Source of the DNA: Squalus acanthias
Lineage: Eukaryota
NCBI GenBank assembly: GCA_030390025.1
Contig: CM059448.1
Span: 4,588,001-4,652,000 of the forward strand
Reading direction: 5' to 3'
DNA: 64,000 nucleotides
Under the pieces are notes generated by a model. That model worked only from the letters and a program-made list of their open reading frames with translations. It was not told where the DNA came from and did not search any database. This document shows, piece after piece, positions 2,311 through 23,029 of this stretch. The stretch's first letter is position 1; every line of letters begins with the position of its first letter. The translations under genes were made by a program, and so were the position numbers.

Positions 2311-3308
2311 CTGGGGCTGGCCCTCAGGTACTTCATCCAAATGGCCATTGGGATCCGACACAGTGCGTGTTGGCGGGATGGTCGATCACAAGGGGGCATC
2401 ACAGCCCCCTCATCCGACATCCACACACACACACATGCGCTTTCCAAGAGGGTCACGGGATAACTGTCAAGATTGGGAACCCTGGCTGATTTCCCCCTCC
2501 CTCCTTTCCTTAGCCCAGGGGCACTGAGGGAATTATAAATCCTCCCGCCCACCCGCCCGCCCCATCAAATCTAACTGCAAAGACTGGGAGAACCTACAAC
2601 TTTCCAGGTCTGCGTGGTATAGTACTGTGCCAGATAGTGTCATTTAACCACTGAACCATTTTCCTTTGCTACAAATGGTTGGGTTTCCAGGGTTGGGAGA
2701 CGGTGGTGGGGTGTCAGTATGCTAGTATCAGAGTAGAAGGAAGTGGTTTTGTGCTGTTTCCCTGAACACAAGTGTTCTGATCTCTATTTGTGTTAATAGA
2801 GGGGTGGGAAAGATACAGAATGCAGGAAGGATAAGCAGGGAGTGTCCCTTTGAGATAGTAAGTGGCAGATGGTTTGCCGCCTTGCTCCCTTGGTTGGGCC
2901 ATGGTGTGGAGTGCAGATAAATCTAGAAAGCAGAAGAACAATATGGGTCCAGATGGGCTGTTTAAAATGATTTCATTATCAAACTGGTACAGTCTCACAG
3001 GAGTGAATTTGTGCTGCTGGGTATATCAGGATGGTCAGATGTCTTGGTTTGACCAGAACAGCCATTCCTGGAGCTCTGAGTGCACTATTTCAGAGAGCAG
3101 GAGATTTTGTTGCCGAATTAAGGGGCCATATGGAATGTTTGGGGTATTCACTGCATAAAAGCACAATTTCCTGCATTTTCATTTATTAGTTAAATGCACC
3201 AGGAATTTCCCCTCAGCAGTCCTGTAATAACTGGATACAGTAAAGGCTGGATACGATAATATTCTTTCTTTGTCTTCACGTTCATAGGTGTTTGCAGAGA
3301 GGCACAGA

Positions 3309-3821
3309 ATGGAGACTCTGGCCACCCCGTTAGCTTTAGGGATTTTGGCAGGAGTTGGATGCGGTTTGTGCCTGGGTTGGCTGATACGCGGACGATTTAT
3401 TGGATCCTTAAAAACCCTGCCCTCTGTGCGGAACGCAGGGATGGAGACGAGCACCATGGGGGAGGGTGGGGAGTACAAGATGGTTTTGGTGGTCCGTAAC
3501 GACCTGAAGATGGGGAAGGGTAAAGTGGCGGCTCAGTGCTCTCACGCTGCTGTCTCAGCGTACAGGCAGGTCCAGAAACGGAATCCGGATCTGCTCCGGC
3601 AGTGGGAGTACTGCGGGCAGCCCAAAGTGGTCGTCAAGGCACCAGACGAGGGTTGCATCGTCGACCTGCTGATGCACGCCAAGGAGCTGGGGCTGACCGT
3701 GAGTTTGATCCAGGATGCTGGCCGCACTCAGATAGCGCCTGGCTCACGTACCGTCCTGGGCGTTGGACCAGCCTCGGCGAAATTAGTGGACAAAGTAACG
3801 GGGCACCTGAAACTTTATTGA
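3309..3821 (+). CDS. PTRH2: Peptidyl-tRNA hydrolase 2, mitochondrial (Bit1), 170 aa, single coding exon
   Basis: N-terminal hydrophobic anchor, then PTH2 domain motifs [66 protein letters not shown]; strong Kozak AGAATGG; acceptor at 3287; ORF open from GTG 3288. Confidence 0.97.
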
Positions 3822-10668: not shown

Positions 10669-11395
10669 GTACAAAAGCAGAACACTGGGGATGCTGGAAA
10701 TCTGAAGTAAAAACAGAAAATGCTGGAAATACTCAGCAGGTCAGGCAGCATCTGTAGAGAGAGAAACAGAGTTAACGTTGCAGGTCGATGACCCTTCGTC
10801 AGAACTGGAAAAAGTCAGAGATGTAACAGATTTTTAAGCAAGTGGGGAGGGGAGGAAAGAACAAAAGGGAAAGTCTGTGAGAGGGTGGAAGGCAGGAGAA
10901 ATTAAAAGACTAAAGAGATGATGGTGCAAGGCAAAAGGAGATGGTAATGGGACAAGTTAAGAAACAAAAGATGACTCTAGATGAGGTTTAAATGGGAATG
11001 GCAGAATCATCAGCAGCTGCCACGTGAGAGAGACAAAAAAAAATGAAAAAAAAAATAGGGGCAGAGGTTATGGTCTGAAATTGTTGAATTCGATGTTGAG
11101 TCCAGAAGGCTGTAAAGTGCCTAATCGAAAGATGAGGTGCTGTTCCTCGAGCTTACGTTGAGCTTCATTGGAACAGTGTAAGAGGCCGAGGACGGAGAGG
11201 TCAGAGTGGGAGTGGAGCGGAGAATTAAAGTGACAGGCAACCGGAAGCTCGGGGTCACCCTTACGGACTGAACGGAGGTGCTCCGCAAAGCGGTCACCCA
11301 ATCTGCGCTTGGTCTCCCCAATGTAGAGGAGACCACATCGTGAGCAGCGAATACAGTATATTAAATTGCAAGAAGTACAAGTAAATCGCTGTTTC
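10669..11395 (-). mobile_element. 5'-truncated Penelope-like retroelement: GIY-YIG endonuclease, pLTR and tail
   Basis: NLIYCIRCSRCGLLYIGET...R..EH...HF...E...GLN (GIY-YIG with CCHH, stop at 11068); 10-bp TSD ACCTGCAATC at 10659-10668 and 11396-11405. Confidence 0.9.
10770..10806 (-). ncRNA. Minimal type I hammerhead ribozyme with a core mutation (GAAA to GCAA)
   Basis: AGTT-CTGACGA-A-GGGTC-ATC-GACCT-GCAA-CG-TT-AACT on the minus strand. Confidence 0.6.
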
Positions 11396-13554
11396 ACCTG
11401 CAATCTATTGATTTCATCTGAAAAATGGTACGTCTGAGAGCCATATAACACCATCCTTCTATGTCACTGGTGGTAGGATGGGGATTGTGCCTAGAATTCC
11501 CAAATGACAAGTTCCCAATCGTCTTTGTATTTCCAGAGATGGTTAGATGCCAAGTGGAGGTGATTTTTTTCCCCCTTCCCTCCTGCGGGTGTTGCTGGGA
11601 TACAATGCCATGGGCCCCACCACCCTCCTGTACCTCACTTAAGTGCACATTATTCATGTTTAAGCTGTTACAGGCTAGTTGAACAGGTGTGGCATCACTT
11701 TTTTACGCAGTGACTTGTTACGATCTTCCTGAAAGGGCGGTCGAAGCAGATTCAATAGTAACTTTCAAAAGGGAATTAGATATTCACTTTAATGAAAAAG
11801 GAACATTTTGCAGGGCTATGGGGAAAGAGCAAGACTAATTGGATAGCTAACAAACTGGGTTCAGTCTCAGTAGAGCAGTATTTCCACATAGTGCTTTTGT
11901 CCCATAACCTAATTACTTATATCTAATAGATTAAAAAAAAACTCAGTCACTGCAAAAATAGATCTCATTATAAGAGGAATAAAGATTAAATGATTTCTAA
12001 AATTACAGCTAATTGTTTTTGTTACTAATTATTTCCTGACACTGCAGGTTCATGCAGTTATCGAGTTCTGGGACTCAGAACCAGTGAGTGTTGAGCTGCT
12101 GAAGGTCACTTTCTGCTCAACTCCCTCTCCCAGCCCAAGAGACTCCATTAATAAATATCTAAAATGTAGTACAGTTTCTAGAGGGAACAAGCCAGGAAGA
12201 AAGTGATGCATTAGATTGTGACCATAACTGGAGACAATCTCAACCCAATTTCATTTGAATTCTGTGCTGGGAATAGAAAAGTTTCAGGAGGCTTTAAGAA
12301 GAAGTATTAAAAGAAGAAATCAAAGTTACTGATCAAAACTTTTATTTGACTGCGTTGTGAGATCCAGCCAAGCCGCTGCCTGTACGAAGGTTAATGTGAA
12401 TCACTGAGCCGCTTGTCACATTGCAGTTGAAACCTGAAGTCTGGAAATCTCATGCTTCGTTCCAGCTTTTCTCATCATTAAATCGACAAATCTTCTGGTG
12501 GCTGGGAGGAATGGGGAGGAAGTGGATCTGCATCTGACGTGGTACTGAGCCACACAAAGCGGAGGGAGCCAAGGTCTGTGCTGAGATAGCTGATCGTAAC
12601 CCGGATGCTGTCGGTAGCATTAAACGAAAGAAGACTTGCATTTATACAGCGCCTTTCACGACCTCGACAACAACAACCTTGTATTTATATAGCGCATTTA
12701 CCGTAGTCACTCCCCCAGAAGGCTGTGGATGCTGGGGGCCAGTTGAAAAGTTCAAGACTGAGAACGATAGTTTTTTGTTAGGTAAGGGTTATCAAGGAAT
12801 ATGGAGCAAAGGCGGGTAAATTGGAGTTGAGGTGCAGATCAACCATGAACTAATTGAATGGCTCGAGGGGCTGAATGGCCAACTCCTGTTCCTAATGTTG
12901 CTATTTGATTGAGCAGGCCTGTAACACTCGTGTTCGAGCTTACGTGAAGAATGAGCCGTTGGTTGAGGTGCCTGGGTGATGCTGTCAGCACCCGCGGAAC
13001 TAAAGCCCAGCACAAGTCGCTGCCTTCGGAATTAGGATAACTAAAGAGACTGTTCTTAAAAGTGTTCATTGTATTCTGGTCTCCATATTACAAAAAAGGA
13101 TATGGCGGCACTGGAGAAGGTGCACAAAAAGATTCACAAGAATGATACCAGAACTGAGAGGTTATAATCATCAGGAAAAGATGAACCGGCTGGGGCTCTT
13201 TTCCCTGGAAAAGAGTAGGCTGAGGGGGTGACCTAATAACAACAACTTGTATTTATATAGCGCCTTTAATGTAGTAAAACGTCCCAAGGCGCTTCACAGG
13301 AGTGTTATAAGACAAAAAATTTGACACCGAGCCACATAAGGAGAAATTAGGACAGGTGACCAAAAGCTTGGTCAAAGAGGTAGGTTTTAAGGAGCATCTT
13401 AAAGGAGGAAAGAGAGGTAGAGAGGTTTAGGCAGGGAATTCCAGAGCTTAGGGCCTAGGCAGCTGAAGGCATGACCGCCAATGGTTGAGCGATTATAATC
13501 AGGGATGCTCAAGAGGGCTGAATTAGAGGAGCGCAGATATCTCGGTGGGGGGTT

Positions 13555-14020: not shown

Positions 14021-14423
14021 GTGGGACTGGAGGAGATGACAGAGATAGGGAGGGGCAAGGCCATGGAGGGATTTGAAAACAAGAACGAGAAATTTGAAAT
14101 TGAGGCGTTGCTTAACCGGGAGCCAACGTACATCAGCGAGCACAGGGGTGATGGGTGAACGAGACTTGGTGCGAGTTGCAACACGGGCAGCCGAGCTTTG
14201 GATCACCTCAAGTTTACGTAGGGTGGAATGTGGGAGGCCAGCCAGGAGTGCGTTGGAATAGTCACGTCTAGAGGTAACAAAGGCATGGATGAGGGTTTCA
14301 GCAGCGGATGAGCTGAGGCAAGGGCGGAGACGGGCGATGTTGCGGAGGTGGAAATAGGCGGTCTTAGTTATGCTGCGGATATGTGGTTGGAAGCTAATTT
14401 CAGGGTTAAATATGACACCAAGG

Positions 14424-15180
14424 TTCTCTTCCCACTGTCCAGGGCCCCAAACACCCCTTCCAGGTGAAACAGCGATTTACTTGTACTTCCTGCAATTTAG
14501 TATACTGTATTCGCTGCTCACGATGTGGTCTCCTCTACATTGGGGAGACCAAACGCAGATTGGGTGACCGCTTTGCGGAACACCTCCGTTCAGTCCGTAA
14601 GGGGGACCCCGAGCTCCCGGTGGCCTGTCACTTTAATTCTCCGCTCCACTCCCATTCTGACCTCACCGTCCTCGGCCTATTACACTGTTCCACGGAAGCT
14701 CAGCATAAGCTCGAGGAACAGCACCTCATCTTTTGTTTAGGCATCCTACAGCCCTCTGGACTCAATATCAAGTTCAACAATTTCAGATCATAACCTCAGC
14801 CCCTATAACATTTATATTTTATTTTTTCATCCACCCTTTTGTTTGGCCCGCCCTTTTTTTTTTGCTTTTCCTCCCAGAAGCTGGCAGCTGTCCTTCATTC
14901 TGCCAGTGCATTTCACACTTCTTTTAGCCTCAACCTGTCACATTAACACCTCCTCTTGCCTTGATCATCTCTTAATGTCTCTTAATGTCTCTTAATCTCT
15001 CCTTTTGTTCTTTCATCCCCTCCCCCTTTTCCCAGCTTTATCCTTGCTTTAAATCTATTTCATTTCCTGCTTTTTTCCAGTTCTGACGAAAGGTCTTCGA
15101 CCTGAAACGTTAACTCTGTTTCTCTCTCCACAGATGCTGCCTGGCCTGCTGAGTTTTTCCCAGCGTTTTCTGTTGTTATT
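14424..15180 (+). mobile_element. 5'-truncated Penelope-like retroelement (GIY-YIG plus pLTR, no tail), nested in the L2
   Basis: ORF 14464-14793 NLVYCIRCSRCGLLYIGET; close paralog of 10669-11395; L2 rejoins as ACACCAAGGTT|GTGAACAG. Confidence 0.9.
15079..15115 (+). ncRNA. Minimal type I hammerhead ribozyme with an intact core
   Basis: Stem I AGTT/AACT, CTGACGA core, stem II AGGTC/GACCT, GAAA, palindromic stem III AACGTT; predicted cleavage after GUU at 15111. Confidence 0.75.
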
Positions 15181-18412: not shown

Positions 18413-20023
18413 AATTTTTAATCAATCTTCAAATGACTTTATAAACTGCAGCAACGCAAAGAAAGTGGAACTGAAACTGTACAAGTCCCAGCAATTATCT
18501 GAGGTGGGGGAACCAAAATATGTATCACCCTAGGATCTGCCCTTTCCCGCTCCTCACCTCACCAGAGACCGAGACACCAAACTATTAAGTGTAGCACGGC
18601 AATTAATACCAATACCTGCAATTTATATATCACCTGATCACATCTCAATGCACTTAATGAATTACTTTGTAGGGACGGTCATGTAGCGAAATGTGGCTGT
18701 TACTCTGCACCAGTATTGTCCCATAAACGAGATGAATGCTGTTATTTGTTCCTCTAAAACATCAACCAGTCCGTATTTGAGCTAGAACTTGAGTGATGTG
18801 TGCGCGTGTGTCTAAGCTGCGGGCGTGTCTCGCTTGAGGAATGTATGACTGATGTCAACCCACTGCACCAGCCACGCCCCAACAATTATTTCTGTGTTTG
18901 AAGACTATGCTGACCAGCTGCGCATGCAATCCTAGTTTATGACTAAGTCTTGCCAACAGAGGAGGAAAGTGAGATGACTGTCTCGAGAGCCGCCAGGGTC
19001 ACATCACAGTAAGGGAGCAGATTAGGACCTCACCAGTGCCATATATAGCGGGATCTTAGAGGATTTCACCACAGAATAATCATTGGTTAAGCCTGCAAAA
19101 ATCACCATTACCCACGACAAATAAGAGTTCCTTTGCTCCTCGGCTGGAGGTGCTAATGCCCTCTGGTATCTCACCCAAGGGATCATCACGTGAGAGGTGT
19201 CAGCACGTATTTGCACGCACACCACTCCTACTCAGTCAACATATCCACATACATTTTTCAGCTGAATTTGGTAGAAAAAGACTCGAGTGGCAACCTGATA
19301 GGAGGTCCTCAAAGATTATGAACGGGTTTGACAGAGAAGATGTTTCCACTTGCAGGTGAGAGCAGAACTGGGGGCTGTAAATGTAAGAGTCACTAACAAA
19401 TCCAAAAGGGAATTCAAGAGAAACGTCTTTATCCAGAGAATGGTTAGAATATGGAACTTGGCGTAGTTGAAATCAATAGCTTAGATGCAATTAAGTGAAA
19501 GCTAGATAAGCACAAGGGAGAAAAGAATAGAAGGATATGCTGATAGTGAAATGAAGGGTAGGAGGAGGCTTGTGTGGAGCATGAACAGCAGCAGTGACTT
19601 GTTGGGCCAAATGGCGTGTTTCTGTGCTGTACTCCAATTCTTTGTAATAATCAGTGGCAGGAGTCCCATTGATTTTCCTGCCCTAAATCAAAGATACTGG
19701 AGCTAATTTTAAGTGTCCTCAGCTTGGCTCAGTAATACCAATCTCAGCCAGAAGGTCATGGTTCAAACCCAACTTCGGGGGACTTGAAACAAATAACCTG
19801 AGTTGACGATTCAGTGCAGGACTGGGTGCAGTATTGTCAGGGGAGATATTAAAACATTCCATCTGTGTGTTCTGGCAGATGTAAAACATCCCATTACAGA
19901 AGGATCCTGGCTAACATTCATCCCTTAATCTAAACATGCGGAGATGCCGGTGTTGGACTGGGGTGGACAAAAAAGGGAGAAGTCGCACAACACCAGGTTA
20001 TAGTCCAACAGCTTTATTTGAAA

Positions 20024-20060
20024 TCACAAGCTTTCGGAGCGCTGCTCCTTCGTCAGGTGA
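20024..20060 (-). ncRNA. Minimal type I hammerhead ribozyme, intact
   Basis: TCAC-CTGACGA-A-GGAGC-AGC-GCTCC-GAAA-GC-TT-GTGA: perfect stems I and II, palindromic stem III AAGCTT. Confidence 0.75.
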
Positions 20061-20837
20061 AGTGAAGAAATACATATGGGCACAGCATATATAGTCAGAG
20101 AATACTGCCAGACGACTAGTTAATCTTTCTAACTGCCCTTTATCACACCTCGGCAGAGACAATCCCGGCAATCACAGGTGCGGATGGTGTCCAAACAGGT
20201 CAGTCAGGAAAACATTACATCAAAGACAATAGCAAAATAAAACAAAGACAATGAGGTGGGGTCACAAGGGGTCAAATGTGGCAGATGCTGCAGGTCTGTA
20301 TGGAAAACAAGAAACTTTAAACTTTTTACTTTTTGCTGGAAATCACAGCAGGTCCAGGCCGCATCTGTGTAGAGAGAACAAGCCAACGACGACTTGAGTC
20401 TGGATACTCTACGTCAGGTGGGGTTACATGTAGCATGACATGAACCCAAGAACTGGGATCTTGGGTTCATGTCACCCCACCTGATGTAGAGTCATCCAGA
20501 CTCAAGTCGTCGTTGGCTTGTTCTCTACACAGATGCGGCTGGACCTGCTGTGATTTCCAGCAAAAAAAGTAAAAAGTTTCAAGTTTCTTGTTTTCCATAC
20601 AGACCCAGCATCTGCCACATTTGACCCCTTGTGACCCCACCTCATTGTCTTTGTTTTATTTTGCTATTGTCTTTGATGTAATGTTTTCCTGACTGACCTG
20701 TTTGGACACCATCCGCACCTTTGATTGCCGGGATTGTCTCTCTGCCGAGGTGTGATAAAGGGCAGTTAGAAAGATTAACTAGTCGTCTGGTAGTGTTCTC
20801 TGACTATATATGCTGTGCCCATATGCATCTCTTCACT

Positions 20838-20874
20838 TCACCTGACGAAGGAGCAGCGCTCCGAAAGCTTGCGA
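20838..20874 (+). ncRNA. Minimal type I hammerhead ribozyme, intact core with one stem I mismatch
   Basis: TCAC-CTGACGA-A-GGAGC-AGC-GCTCC-GAAA-GC-TT-GCGA. Confidence 0.7.
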
Positions 20875-23029
20875 TTTCAAATAAAGCTGTTGGACTATAA
20901 CCTGGTGTTGAGACTTCTCACTTTAATCTAAACAGATCAACTATTTTTTCCACTCTATTGCTGTTTAGGGGACTTGTGCACAAATTGGCTGCCACATTTG
21001 CCCACAAACCAATGACAACAGTATTCCCTGTTTCGATGAAACTGCCATCCTACTACAGTCTTAGCTGCTGCGGATAGGGCAGGCCCCTTTAAGGAGAGAA
21101 GGGGTGTTGGAAGACAGTACATGGTAGAAACAGGACTTTTTAATCAGTTTGGGAGCATTTTAAAAAAATGAAGCAACCAGCCTGCAACCTTTGATCCTCT
21201 TACTATAATCAGCCCAGGGCTCCAAGACCCAGGTATCAGTGAAGAGCTTGGCAGCTCAGCCTTCACATCGCAGTGTTTTGATTTTAAAAAATCACTTGCT
21301 ACTGAAATATTAAATAGTGTGGGTTTCTTTTTTGACCAGATTAATGTTTATTATCCCAATAGTCTTTCATTATCAATGCAAATAAAAACAGATCAAAGGT
21401 GAATCGCCACCACAGAGCATTGACTGATCAAAAAAGTTTAGCTTCAAGGACCAGCAACTGAGCACTCAAACCTGCATCACCTCAGTCATCAACCCTGCAT
21501 CTTTTCACCTCATTACTGAAAGGAAGCTAATTTCTACATTCCAATTTTTAAATCACCTTGCTACCCTCCTAAATCGATAACAGAGCTTCTTACCATCTAA
21601 AAAGTTTGCAGGTAAGTAAGGTGGGCTTCCTGCAGTATTGCTGGCAGTCTCCAGGCTGGATGGAGTGTACAGTAGCAGGAACTGGGAGCTTGTTGGTTGA
21701 AGTTCAGAGCAATATTCAGGCAAAGGATAGGAGCTGGAGCATTCAGAGCAGACTGTGTGGGTAAGAGCAAGGTAGCACATGCAGGAAAGGAGCTGAGAGA
21801 AAGAGTTGGAGACCAGAAAACCTGCCATAAAGTTCTTGCTCGGTCCCACTGTCATAACTACAGATTTTAAATATCAAAATCAATGGAAGAGCTCCAAAAA
21901 AAACTGCAAAAAAAGTAAAATCACCAGTTACAACCAGGAGAAAGTGGCAAGAATAGAGCAAATGTTTATATTTGGACTGTTAAAAGCAGCATGGGTCCCA
22001 ATGGTTAGATCTGTATACAGGAAGTGAAGGCAGAGAATGTAAATATTGGCTAGAACACCAGGGAGAACTCCCCTGCTCTCTTCCAGTGCCATGGAATCTT
22101 ATGTGCACCCGAGGGGGCAGATGAAGCTTCAGTTTAACATCTAATCTGAAAAATTAATCCCCTTGGAGCCCTGGTAACTCTGCACTGCACTCCTTCCAAG
22201 GCCAATATATCCTAAGGTGCAGTATCCAGAACTGTACACTACTCCAGACATGGTCTAACCAGGGCTTTGTACAGCTATAGCAAAACTGCCTCCTTTATAT
22301 TCTAGCCCTCTAGTTAAAGGCCAATATCCCATTACCCTTTGATTCATTTTGTACCTGACTACTACATTTGAGATATATGTACATGGACCCCTAAATCTCT
22401 GAACCGCCACTGTGCCGAGCGGAGTTCCACAGCTAAAAGCCTGGTACAACTCAACACGTGCGCTCAGGGGATAAATACTGGACGGAAGGCACCCACAGAA
22501 CTGTAGCGCAGCCAGAGCAGGTACCTTCAAGTCAAACAACTGGAAAGTGAGCGATTTGTATCCCAGTGAGGGAATTGTTAAATACATCAGGTCAGAATGT
22601 GTCCTCCATCTACATTAGATGTTGGGTATTTTCTCATGGAGATGCAGGTTTGACCCTAGGAGAAAGCACTTTCAATTTTAGGTATAGACAGTACATGCAA
22701 GCCAGCTTATACATCCTTAAACTATGTTGCTTTTTTTAAAAAAGGAATCACGAGGAATAATTAAACGGAGCAGATAAAGGGTACTAGGTTAGAGCTACTG
22801 AATCCAACAAGAGAGCTTAGACCCACTACTGAAATATTCTCAGGTTCGTGAACACATCTTAATTCAGTTTATTACGAGAACTTTGTAAGCTTCTAACTGG
22901 AGTTCCTTTTTTTTTTAAAGCCCCCCTGCCATTTGTCAGGAAAAGGACAGTTGTGACCCCCAGTTGAAAGAATTAAAGATGAACTAGAATGGGCACAAAG
23001 AAAACACACCCACACACAAATCAGCAGAG

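Follow-up and report, generated by a model that had tools for sequence, protein, structure and literature searches.

The closest described relatives of the structure reported here are the complex insertions of endonuclease-bearing (EN+) Penelope-like elements (PLEs), in which two pseudo-long terminal repeats (pLTRs) stand head to head, with a tail of 30-40 nt at one end and a target-site duplication of ~10 bp (PMC3846280; PMC8557442). The wider interest of the family lies in the manner of PLE integration and in the origin of one-tailed inverted copies. We analysed a stretch of 64,000 nt of the shark Squalus acanthias (contig CM059448.1, positions 4,588,001 to 4,652,000; hereafter the window), which holds a palindrome of 986 bases at 19937-20922 with the same architecture. 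A previous annotation made from the letters alone (the original prediction) had taken this palindrome for a non-autonomous mobile foldback element carrying hammerhead ribozymes, with a by-product of one insertion as the other possibility.

A second point of comparison is PAc, a Poseidon PLE of the green anole (PMC11167929), which has the same tail, a hammerhead in its pLTR and copies ending at two fixed points ~35-40 nt apart. In vitro, its protein, a predicted dimer, cuts and extends both target strands, and synthesis begins from two internal sites between which the tail lies (PMC11167929). PAc belongs to another clade than the shark parent element, which has a C-x4-C-x2-C linker, and its ATG lies inside the hammerhead with the start sites inside the open reading frame (ORF; PMC11167929), whereas in the shark the ATG follows both hammerhead and tail. 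As in the shark, the pLTR of EN+ PLEs contains a TATA-like box and the motif TCACT, the latter described from a rotifer pLTR (PMC3846280). Unlike the published EN+ insertions, the shark halves are cut down to the pLTR, with no ORF body between them, and the inverted form is the majority in this genome, mostly as palindromes of 200-230 bp.

The locus itself is ordinary, and inverted pLTRs with a one-sided tail have already been published. What is newly added is a set of counts that bear on mechanism: the one-tail rule, the variants common to both arms, the 5' reach of the arms and the pile-up of ends at an initiator-like motif. The window palindrome consists of two 5'-truncated pLTR copies joined head to head in a single insertion, and its mirror image was likely made during insertion rather than carried in as a hairpin. 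We estimate at roughly 55% the probability that it is a PLE insertion product made by a two-primer mechanism, in which each of two nicks primes its own cDNA. More than 20,000 hammerhead-bearing ends permit the counting of the tail rule, arm concordance and 5' ends, by which the two-primer, fold-back and antisense models can be separated.

Structure of the palindrome

In a self-alignment, the left arm (19972-20430) matched the reverse complement of 20924-20468 with 95.0% identity over 464 columns. The arms differ by substitutions, several indels of 1-2 nt and a 12-nt deletion of the right arm adjoining the loop. In the predicted fold the terminal stem ends in a 7-nt loop (20452-20458), the right-arm deletion forms a 12-nt bulge, and the whole palindrome reaches -862.6 kcal/mol (z = -61 against 20 shuffles). 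The tailed arm (T; 19937-20451, minus strand) is a PLE pLTR that begins with the last ORF codons, stops 1-2 nt short of the ORF ATG and is 87.5% identical to its counterpart in a natural copy with an ORF. The untailed arm (U; 20452-20922, plus strand) is a second pLTR copy, in which alignment and fold place the 12-nt deletion after 20474. By alignment of the arms, the tail is present on the left arm only, from 19937 to ~19971-19976 on the minus strand, its length being 35-40 nt depending on the choice of right-arm end; such a tail is known from PMC11167929, PMC8557442 and PMC3846280. The loop corresponds to an additional 5' reach of the right arm, with a 1-nt overlap at the joint (the arms start at reference positions 2697 and 2689). 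An exact 12-bp direct repeat (19925-19936 and 20923-20934) flanks the palindrome on both sides as a target-site duplication.

Both flanks are colinear with one old dispersed repeat (64-72% matches, at 2 of 154 loci) and thus represent its two halves. A self-BLAST of the arm within the window found no third copy. In two DNA runs that belong to separate studies (X2, X5), a single contig per run spans the junction of left flank and tail. The two arms have three rare alleles and a 2-nt deletion in common. Stop-free stretches within the palindrome do not exceed 69 codons, and the longest one started by ATG has 48. These results agree with the original prediction on the inverted arms, the 7-nt loop, the one-sided tail, the 12-bp duplication, the want of a meaningful ORF and insertion as one unit. 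Its description of the arms as having few mismatches holds at 95.0% identity and slightly understates the differences. The splitting of an older repeat, a putative short interspersed nuclear element (SINE), is borne out as well.

Parent element

We searched the genome (3.7 Gb) with the palindrome centre and obtained 1,421 candidates, 40 of which were scored. In most of the fetched loci (designated by L and a number) the arm runs on into an ORF end instead of a mirror copy. The last codons and stop of this ORF lie at 20424-20451 of the tailed arm (minus strand), and the ORF-bearing loci L019, L023, L028 and L029 have an identical end. The parent ORF contains a reverse transcriptase (RT) domain (Pfam RVT_1, E 1.7e-9), and the C-x4-C-x2-C linker is found in the ORFs of L019, L023 and L028. 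The ORF end is GIY-YIG-like when read by eye; the shark ORF itself gave no GIY-YIG match in Pfam at E <= 1, and the homolog P0023 matches PF01541. The nearest named proteins are from sharks, with 80-92% for the top four, and the homologs have the GIY-YIG Pfam family. At the other end, the tail leads into an ATG: 16 of 30 fetched loci with tail plus ATG go on into a common N-terminus, and 11 of the 30 match the N-terminus of the full-length homolog P0005 by tblastn (42-57%).

Since the arm joins both the ORF end and the ORF start in related loci, the arm is a PLE pLTR, and the derivation from a PLE given in the original prediction is upheld. With the ORF link and RVT_1, the inverted pLTRs with a 30-40 nt tail at one end and the target-site duplication, the window palindrome is very probably a PLE insertion product. 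A CX2-5CxxC linker between RT and endonuclease marks Neptune or Nematis elements (PMC8557442), and one survey recovered only Neptune and Poseidon from its vertebrates. On the basis of this sequence motif and the survey, the parent element likely belongs to the Neptune clade.

One-tailed pairs across the genome

A 26-mer of the hammerhead has 22,169 exact copies genome-wide (control 0). We sampled its first 100 matches on contig C1, which gave 85 stretches and, after four overlaps were dropped, 81 loci; L054 was counted in the sample although it is a local duplicate of L053. The 81 loci contain 65 head-to-head pairs and 24 arms for which no partner was detected. T+U was the composition of 62 of the 65 pairs, none was T+T, one was U+U and two were unclear. 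The arms of the single U+U pair lie 2.1 kb apart with no duplication and are probably mis-paired. Independent arms would give about half T+U. A candidate target duplication of 8-16 bp was present in 60/65 pairs, with some slack in the search, so that the shortest ones may be due to chance. Most sampled pairs are 150-300 bp long. Genome-wide, ~4,050 palindromes are centred within 30 nt 5' of the hammerhead (4,049 and 4,056 matches on the two strands, control 0), and their centres varied widely among the 50 places listed. Head-to-head insertion is the commonest form of the family.

Agreement between the arms was evaluated on 71 pairs, ten of them selected, one of which is the window palindrome. 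At a subfamily site where the two alleles are about equally frequent, the arms agree in 63 of 66 pairs. Decay at a CpG site affects one arm in 12 and both arms in none of 56 pairs. Because this decay is never found on both arms, later homogenising or conversion is not the cause of the concordance, and we ruled out post-insertion homogenising as its main source. Both arms share one source.

The 5' ends of the arms were then considered. Among 59 unbiased pairs the untailed arm reaches further 5' in 24, the tailed arm in 23, and 12 are ties; in L067, L190 and L168 the tailed arm is the tail alone. In long pairs, the 5' end of one arm is correlated with that of the other (rho 0.49, p 0.011, n = 26), and the median gap between them is 118 nt compared to 279 nt when shuffled, a value as low being reached in 6 of 5,000 shuffles. 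Short arms and single copies have their first base at the A of TCACT or immediately behind it. In the window, this initiator-like motif lies at 20061-20065 of the tailed arm (minus strand), where the pile-up of short-copy 5' ends points to the A at 20063 as the transcription start, with a TATA-like box (20087-20093, minus strand) 30 nt upstream. The untailed arm mirrors this arrangement on the plus strand, with the TATA-like box at 20805-20811 and TCACT at 20833-20837. The base before the A, in cases where it is not the native one, was G in 15 of 32, C in 8, A in 6 and T in 3, according to a crude classing. An extra G would fit run-off copying of a capped sense RNA, a reading that microhomology confounds.

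Proposed insertion mechanism

In the mechanism we propose, an RT-endonuclease, probably as a dimer, would nick both target strands ~12 bp apart. One nick would prime cDNA at the end of the tail adjoining the ATG, and the other ~40 nt upstream. The template of both cDNAs would likely be one and the same RNA, or else RNAs from a single source copy. Their 3' ends could then join through zero to a few complementary bases, with repair filling in the remainder. Priming in the 5' pLTR of the RNA would lead to run-off at the start site and hence to the common mini-palindromes of 200-230 bp, while priming in the 3' pLTR combined with early stops would give longer palindromes such as the window copy. 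A comparable event is the twin priming of L1, in which an inversion also arises at insertion, both target strands prime and the joints have small overlaps. In twin priming, however, non-overlapping parts of one RNA are copied, whereas the shark arms cover the same stretch and have fixed starts.

Two cDNAs, one per nick and per start site, would account for the one-tail rule, the common source of the arms, their 5' reach and the initiator pile-up, and are in line with the in vitro data from the anole. The general proposition is that of two-headed target-primed reverse transcription, by which a dimer copies one RNA twice from starts ~40 nt apart and a palindrome with one tail is the ordinary PLE product; we put it forward tentatively, at slightly less than even odds. 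We found the two-primer reading proposed nowhere in the literature searched, a search outside of which most subscription papers lie. If two-headed priming is true, thousands of shark insertions record PLE integration and make its mechanism testable, and thousands of potential double-stranded-RNA hairpins have been seeded in the genome.

Several observations weigh against the two-primer reading. In only 4 of 16 long pairs does an arm have its partner as nearest relative, and 3 of the 66 pairs are discordant at the subfamily site, two of them being the twin hairpins of L074. The 26 pairs behind the correlation of 5' ends are a mixture of sampled and selected loci. Deletions of the centre after insertion could also yield the pattern in which either arm may be the longer. 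Exceptions to the tail rule were met among the 27 pairs of the selected set, with L134 being T+T and L013 U+U, and L175 is nearly T+T. No partner was detected for 24 of the 89 units, and several of the single copies are clean and have their own duplication. The unusual centre of L049 is found again at an unrelated site, L053/L054. Finally, the in vitro work on the anole concerns a different clade, Poseidon, and shows no joined inverted products.

Alternative explanations

The main rival is a fold-back, in which a single cDNA, primed from the end of the tail, folds back at its 3' end and is copied into a second arm that either stops or is cut ~40 nt short, with later deletions blurring the centre. 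This would give the one-tail rule, the common rare alleles and, from one priming event, the correlated arm lengths, and tight centres are indeed frequent. As it stands, this model requires the longer 5' reach to be that of the tailed arm in every pair, which was the case in 23 of 59 pairs, with the untailed arm ahead in 24/59, the window copy included. In addition, the untailed arm often starts exactly at the initiator-like A when the tailed arm is far shorter or consists of the tail only (L044, L047, L056, L067, L190). Single untailed copies also occur, which indicates that the upstream site primes by itself. The fold-back thus fits the one-tail rule and the common source and needs later deletions for the 5' reach; we regard it as unlikely, at about one chance in four.

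Published readings of the same architecture let an antisense RNA serve for self-priming, or have the endonuclease resolve an intermediate of circular or branched form with the tail left on one side (PMC3846280, PMC8557442). In their favour, the TATA-like box reads in both directions. The centres, however, pile up at the initiator-like base of the sense strand, as would be the case for run-off on sense RNA, and the G found before this A in nearly half of the non-native cases fits copying of a 5' cap, with microhomology again as a confounder. Moreover, later work identified the tail with the stretch of sense RNA that lies between two RT start sites (PMC11167929). We consider these readings improbable, and clearly more so than a fold-back.

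A further reading, after the original prediction, makes the hairpin itself the mobile unit; in this case its rod-like RNA would be reverse transcribed whole by a PLE protein. The exact centre pattern (at most 20 nt between arms) was found at four loci in the 3.7 Gb, each with different centre letters, and four further loci with decayed or altered centres were met in the fetched set. A query from the middle of the arm gave 40 scored places, and none of the 28 other loci fetched has the centre of the window copy; many of these close relatives are longer 5'-truncated copies with ORF sequence. The same breakpoint does recur, on at least one orientation, at L005, L006 and L015. These loci differ from the window copy in arm subfamily or in which arm is tailed: the arms of L005 and L006 belong to another subfamily (73-77% to the window element), and in L005 and L015 it is the other arm, as seen from the centre, that has the tail. 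Recurrent short centres are moreover explained by a fixed RNA 5' end. We thus found no dispersed copies having the same centre and arms with different target duplications. The hairpin is not a family, and the palindrome is a one-off product of an abundant PLE. The original prediction had held that a unique loop junction, with all other copies non-palindromic, would make it a one-off inverted insertion; the centre is indeed near-unique, whereas most other copies are palindromes with their own centres.

Whole-hairpin copying may nevertheless happen on occasion. L049 (C1:3.433 Mb), L053 and L054 (C1:3.967 and 3.984 Mb) hold a palindrome of 299 bp that combines an unusual centre with an arm variant. 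L049 and L053/L054 are unrelated sites with different flanks and target duplications, which suggests that hairpins can occasionally be copied whole; rare whole-hairpin copying and ectopic conversion are the candidate readings. This centre has three copies genome-wide, all within 0.55 Mb, and was ruled out as a dispersed family. In L074, two mini-palindromes 1.2 kb apart (747-924 and 1951-2130) agree in their centre and in an arm-discordant subfamily allele, and their target duplications differ. In view of this rare local copying we keep the idea of a mobile hairpin, with a very small probability. Two further observations concern recurring centres. Three dispersed mini-palindromes, at L080, L087 and L100, are nearly identical at their centre, and in each the tailed arm alone has a G in its hammerhead core. 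A 10-nt centre with five occurrences in the first 100 hammerhead matches was rejected as a mini-hairpin family, since a fixed 5' end accounts for the centre and both subfamily alleles occur with it.

Lastly, an assembly artefact from fold-back reads, to which the several arm differences of 1-2 nt in short runs and the restriction of independent-run support to the left junction, without the loop or right junction, might point, is next to excluded by arms that differ by 5% with separate alleles, a tail on one of them only, a 12-bp duplication closing both ends, flanks that are halves of an older repeat, a left junction present in two other DNA runs and 62 other loci that match the pattern.

Hammerhead motifs

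The palindrome carries one hammerhead motif per strand in an inverted arrangement, at 20024-20060 (minus) and 20838-20874 (plus), the positions given in the original prediction, and by their features both are PLE minimal type I hammerheads, as it had stated. The minus copy has the conserved core, intact stems I and II and a palindromic stem III, and its isolated fold contains stem I, the C3-G8 pair and stem II. In the plus copy the core (20842-20848) is followed by stem II (20850-20862) and a predicted cut at 20870/20871; stem I has a mismatch at 20872, where 77 of 79 aligned arms of relatives have T, and the isolated minimum-energy fold does not take the hammerhead shape. Compared to the minimal type I hammerheads of metazoan PLEs (PMC4209133), the shark motif agrees in its core, in the additional base preceding stem II, in the G10.1-C11.1 pair, the 4-bp stem I and the palindromic stem III, and differs in its stem II of 5 bp. 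Rfam, searched in the spirit of the hammerhead-model check suggested in the original prediction, did not call the motifs: there were no matches at gathering score in the window, and of ten matches in 19900-20960 at E <= 10 none was to a hammerhead family. Those ten, nine to microRNA precursors and one to a small nucleolar RNA, were all under gathering scores and were taken as generic hairpin matches.

In both full-length strands, where the antisense arm is transcribed first, the hammerhead stems have a predicted pair probability of 0.0. Minimal hammerheads of metazoan PLEs are described as inactive as monomers and weak as dimers (PMC4209133). Given this, the stem probability and the single motif per strand, it is unlikely that a rod-like transcript would cleave itself close to its 3' end, as had been proposed. 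The hammerheads are probably passengers, with a predicted silencing by the duplex in a hairpin transcript.

The proposed likeness to retrozymes and viroid-like RNAs fails on architecture. Non-LTR retrozymes are equally non-coding, hammerhead-bearing and derived from PLE pLTRs, and they are head-to-tail tandems with at least two hammerheads on one strand (bioRxiv 10.64898/2026.07.22.740005), whereas the shark palindrome is head-to-head with one per strand. No head-to-tail repeat with hammerheads on the same strand is present in the palindrome. Opposite-strand pairs of hammerheads ~100-700 bp apart are described from Schistosoma (PMC4209133). Elsewhere in the shark genome, L163, L166, L167 and L188 contain short partial tandems that run ~60-70 nt into the ORF start and then return to the hammerhead, which gives two hammerheads on one strand ~200 nt apart, as retrozyme-like units. 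An altered stem II recurs on one arm only, and in more than one subfamily (L053, L078, L096, L116, L119); recurrent template switching and assembly error are candidate readings. Each arm of the window copy also has an AATAAA ~10 nt downstream of the predicted hammerhead cut (20013-20018, minus; 20880-20885, plus).

Genomic setting and other observations

The palindrome lies between a PTH2-family gene (plus strand, 3288-3818) and a convergent clathrin heavy chain gene (minus strand) that extends from ~23920 to beyond 53191, with its last coding exon near 24050-23920. As the palindrome is ~3 kb past the clathrin heavy chain stop, only read-through would be expected to transcribe it. If transcribed in this way, such palindromes would, hypothetically, be substrates for ADAR or Dicer.

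At L047, L056, L080 and L119, independent insertions lie at almost the same point within one host repeat and have target duplications that resemble each other, which may reflect a target preference. The window also contains pieces of a second PLE family at 11071-11463 (minus), 14416-14790 (plus) and 15077-15115 (plus), with a GIY-YIG Pfam match on 14416-14790 and a different hammerhead-like core at 15083.

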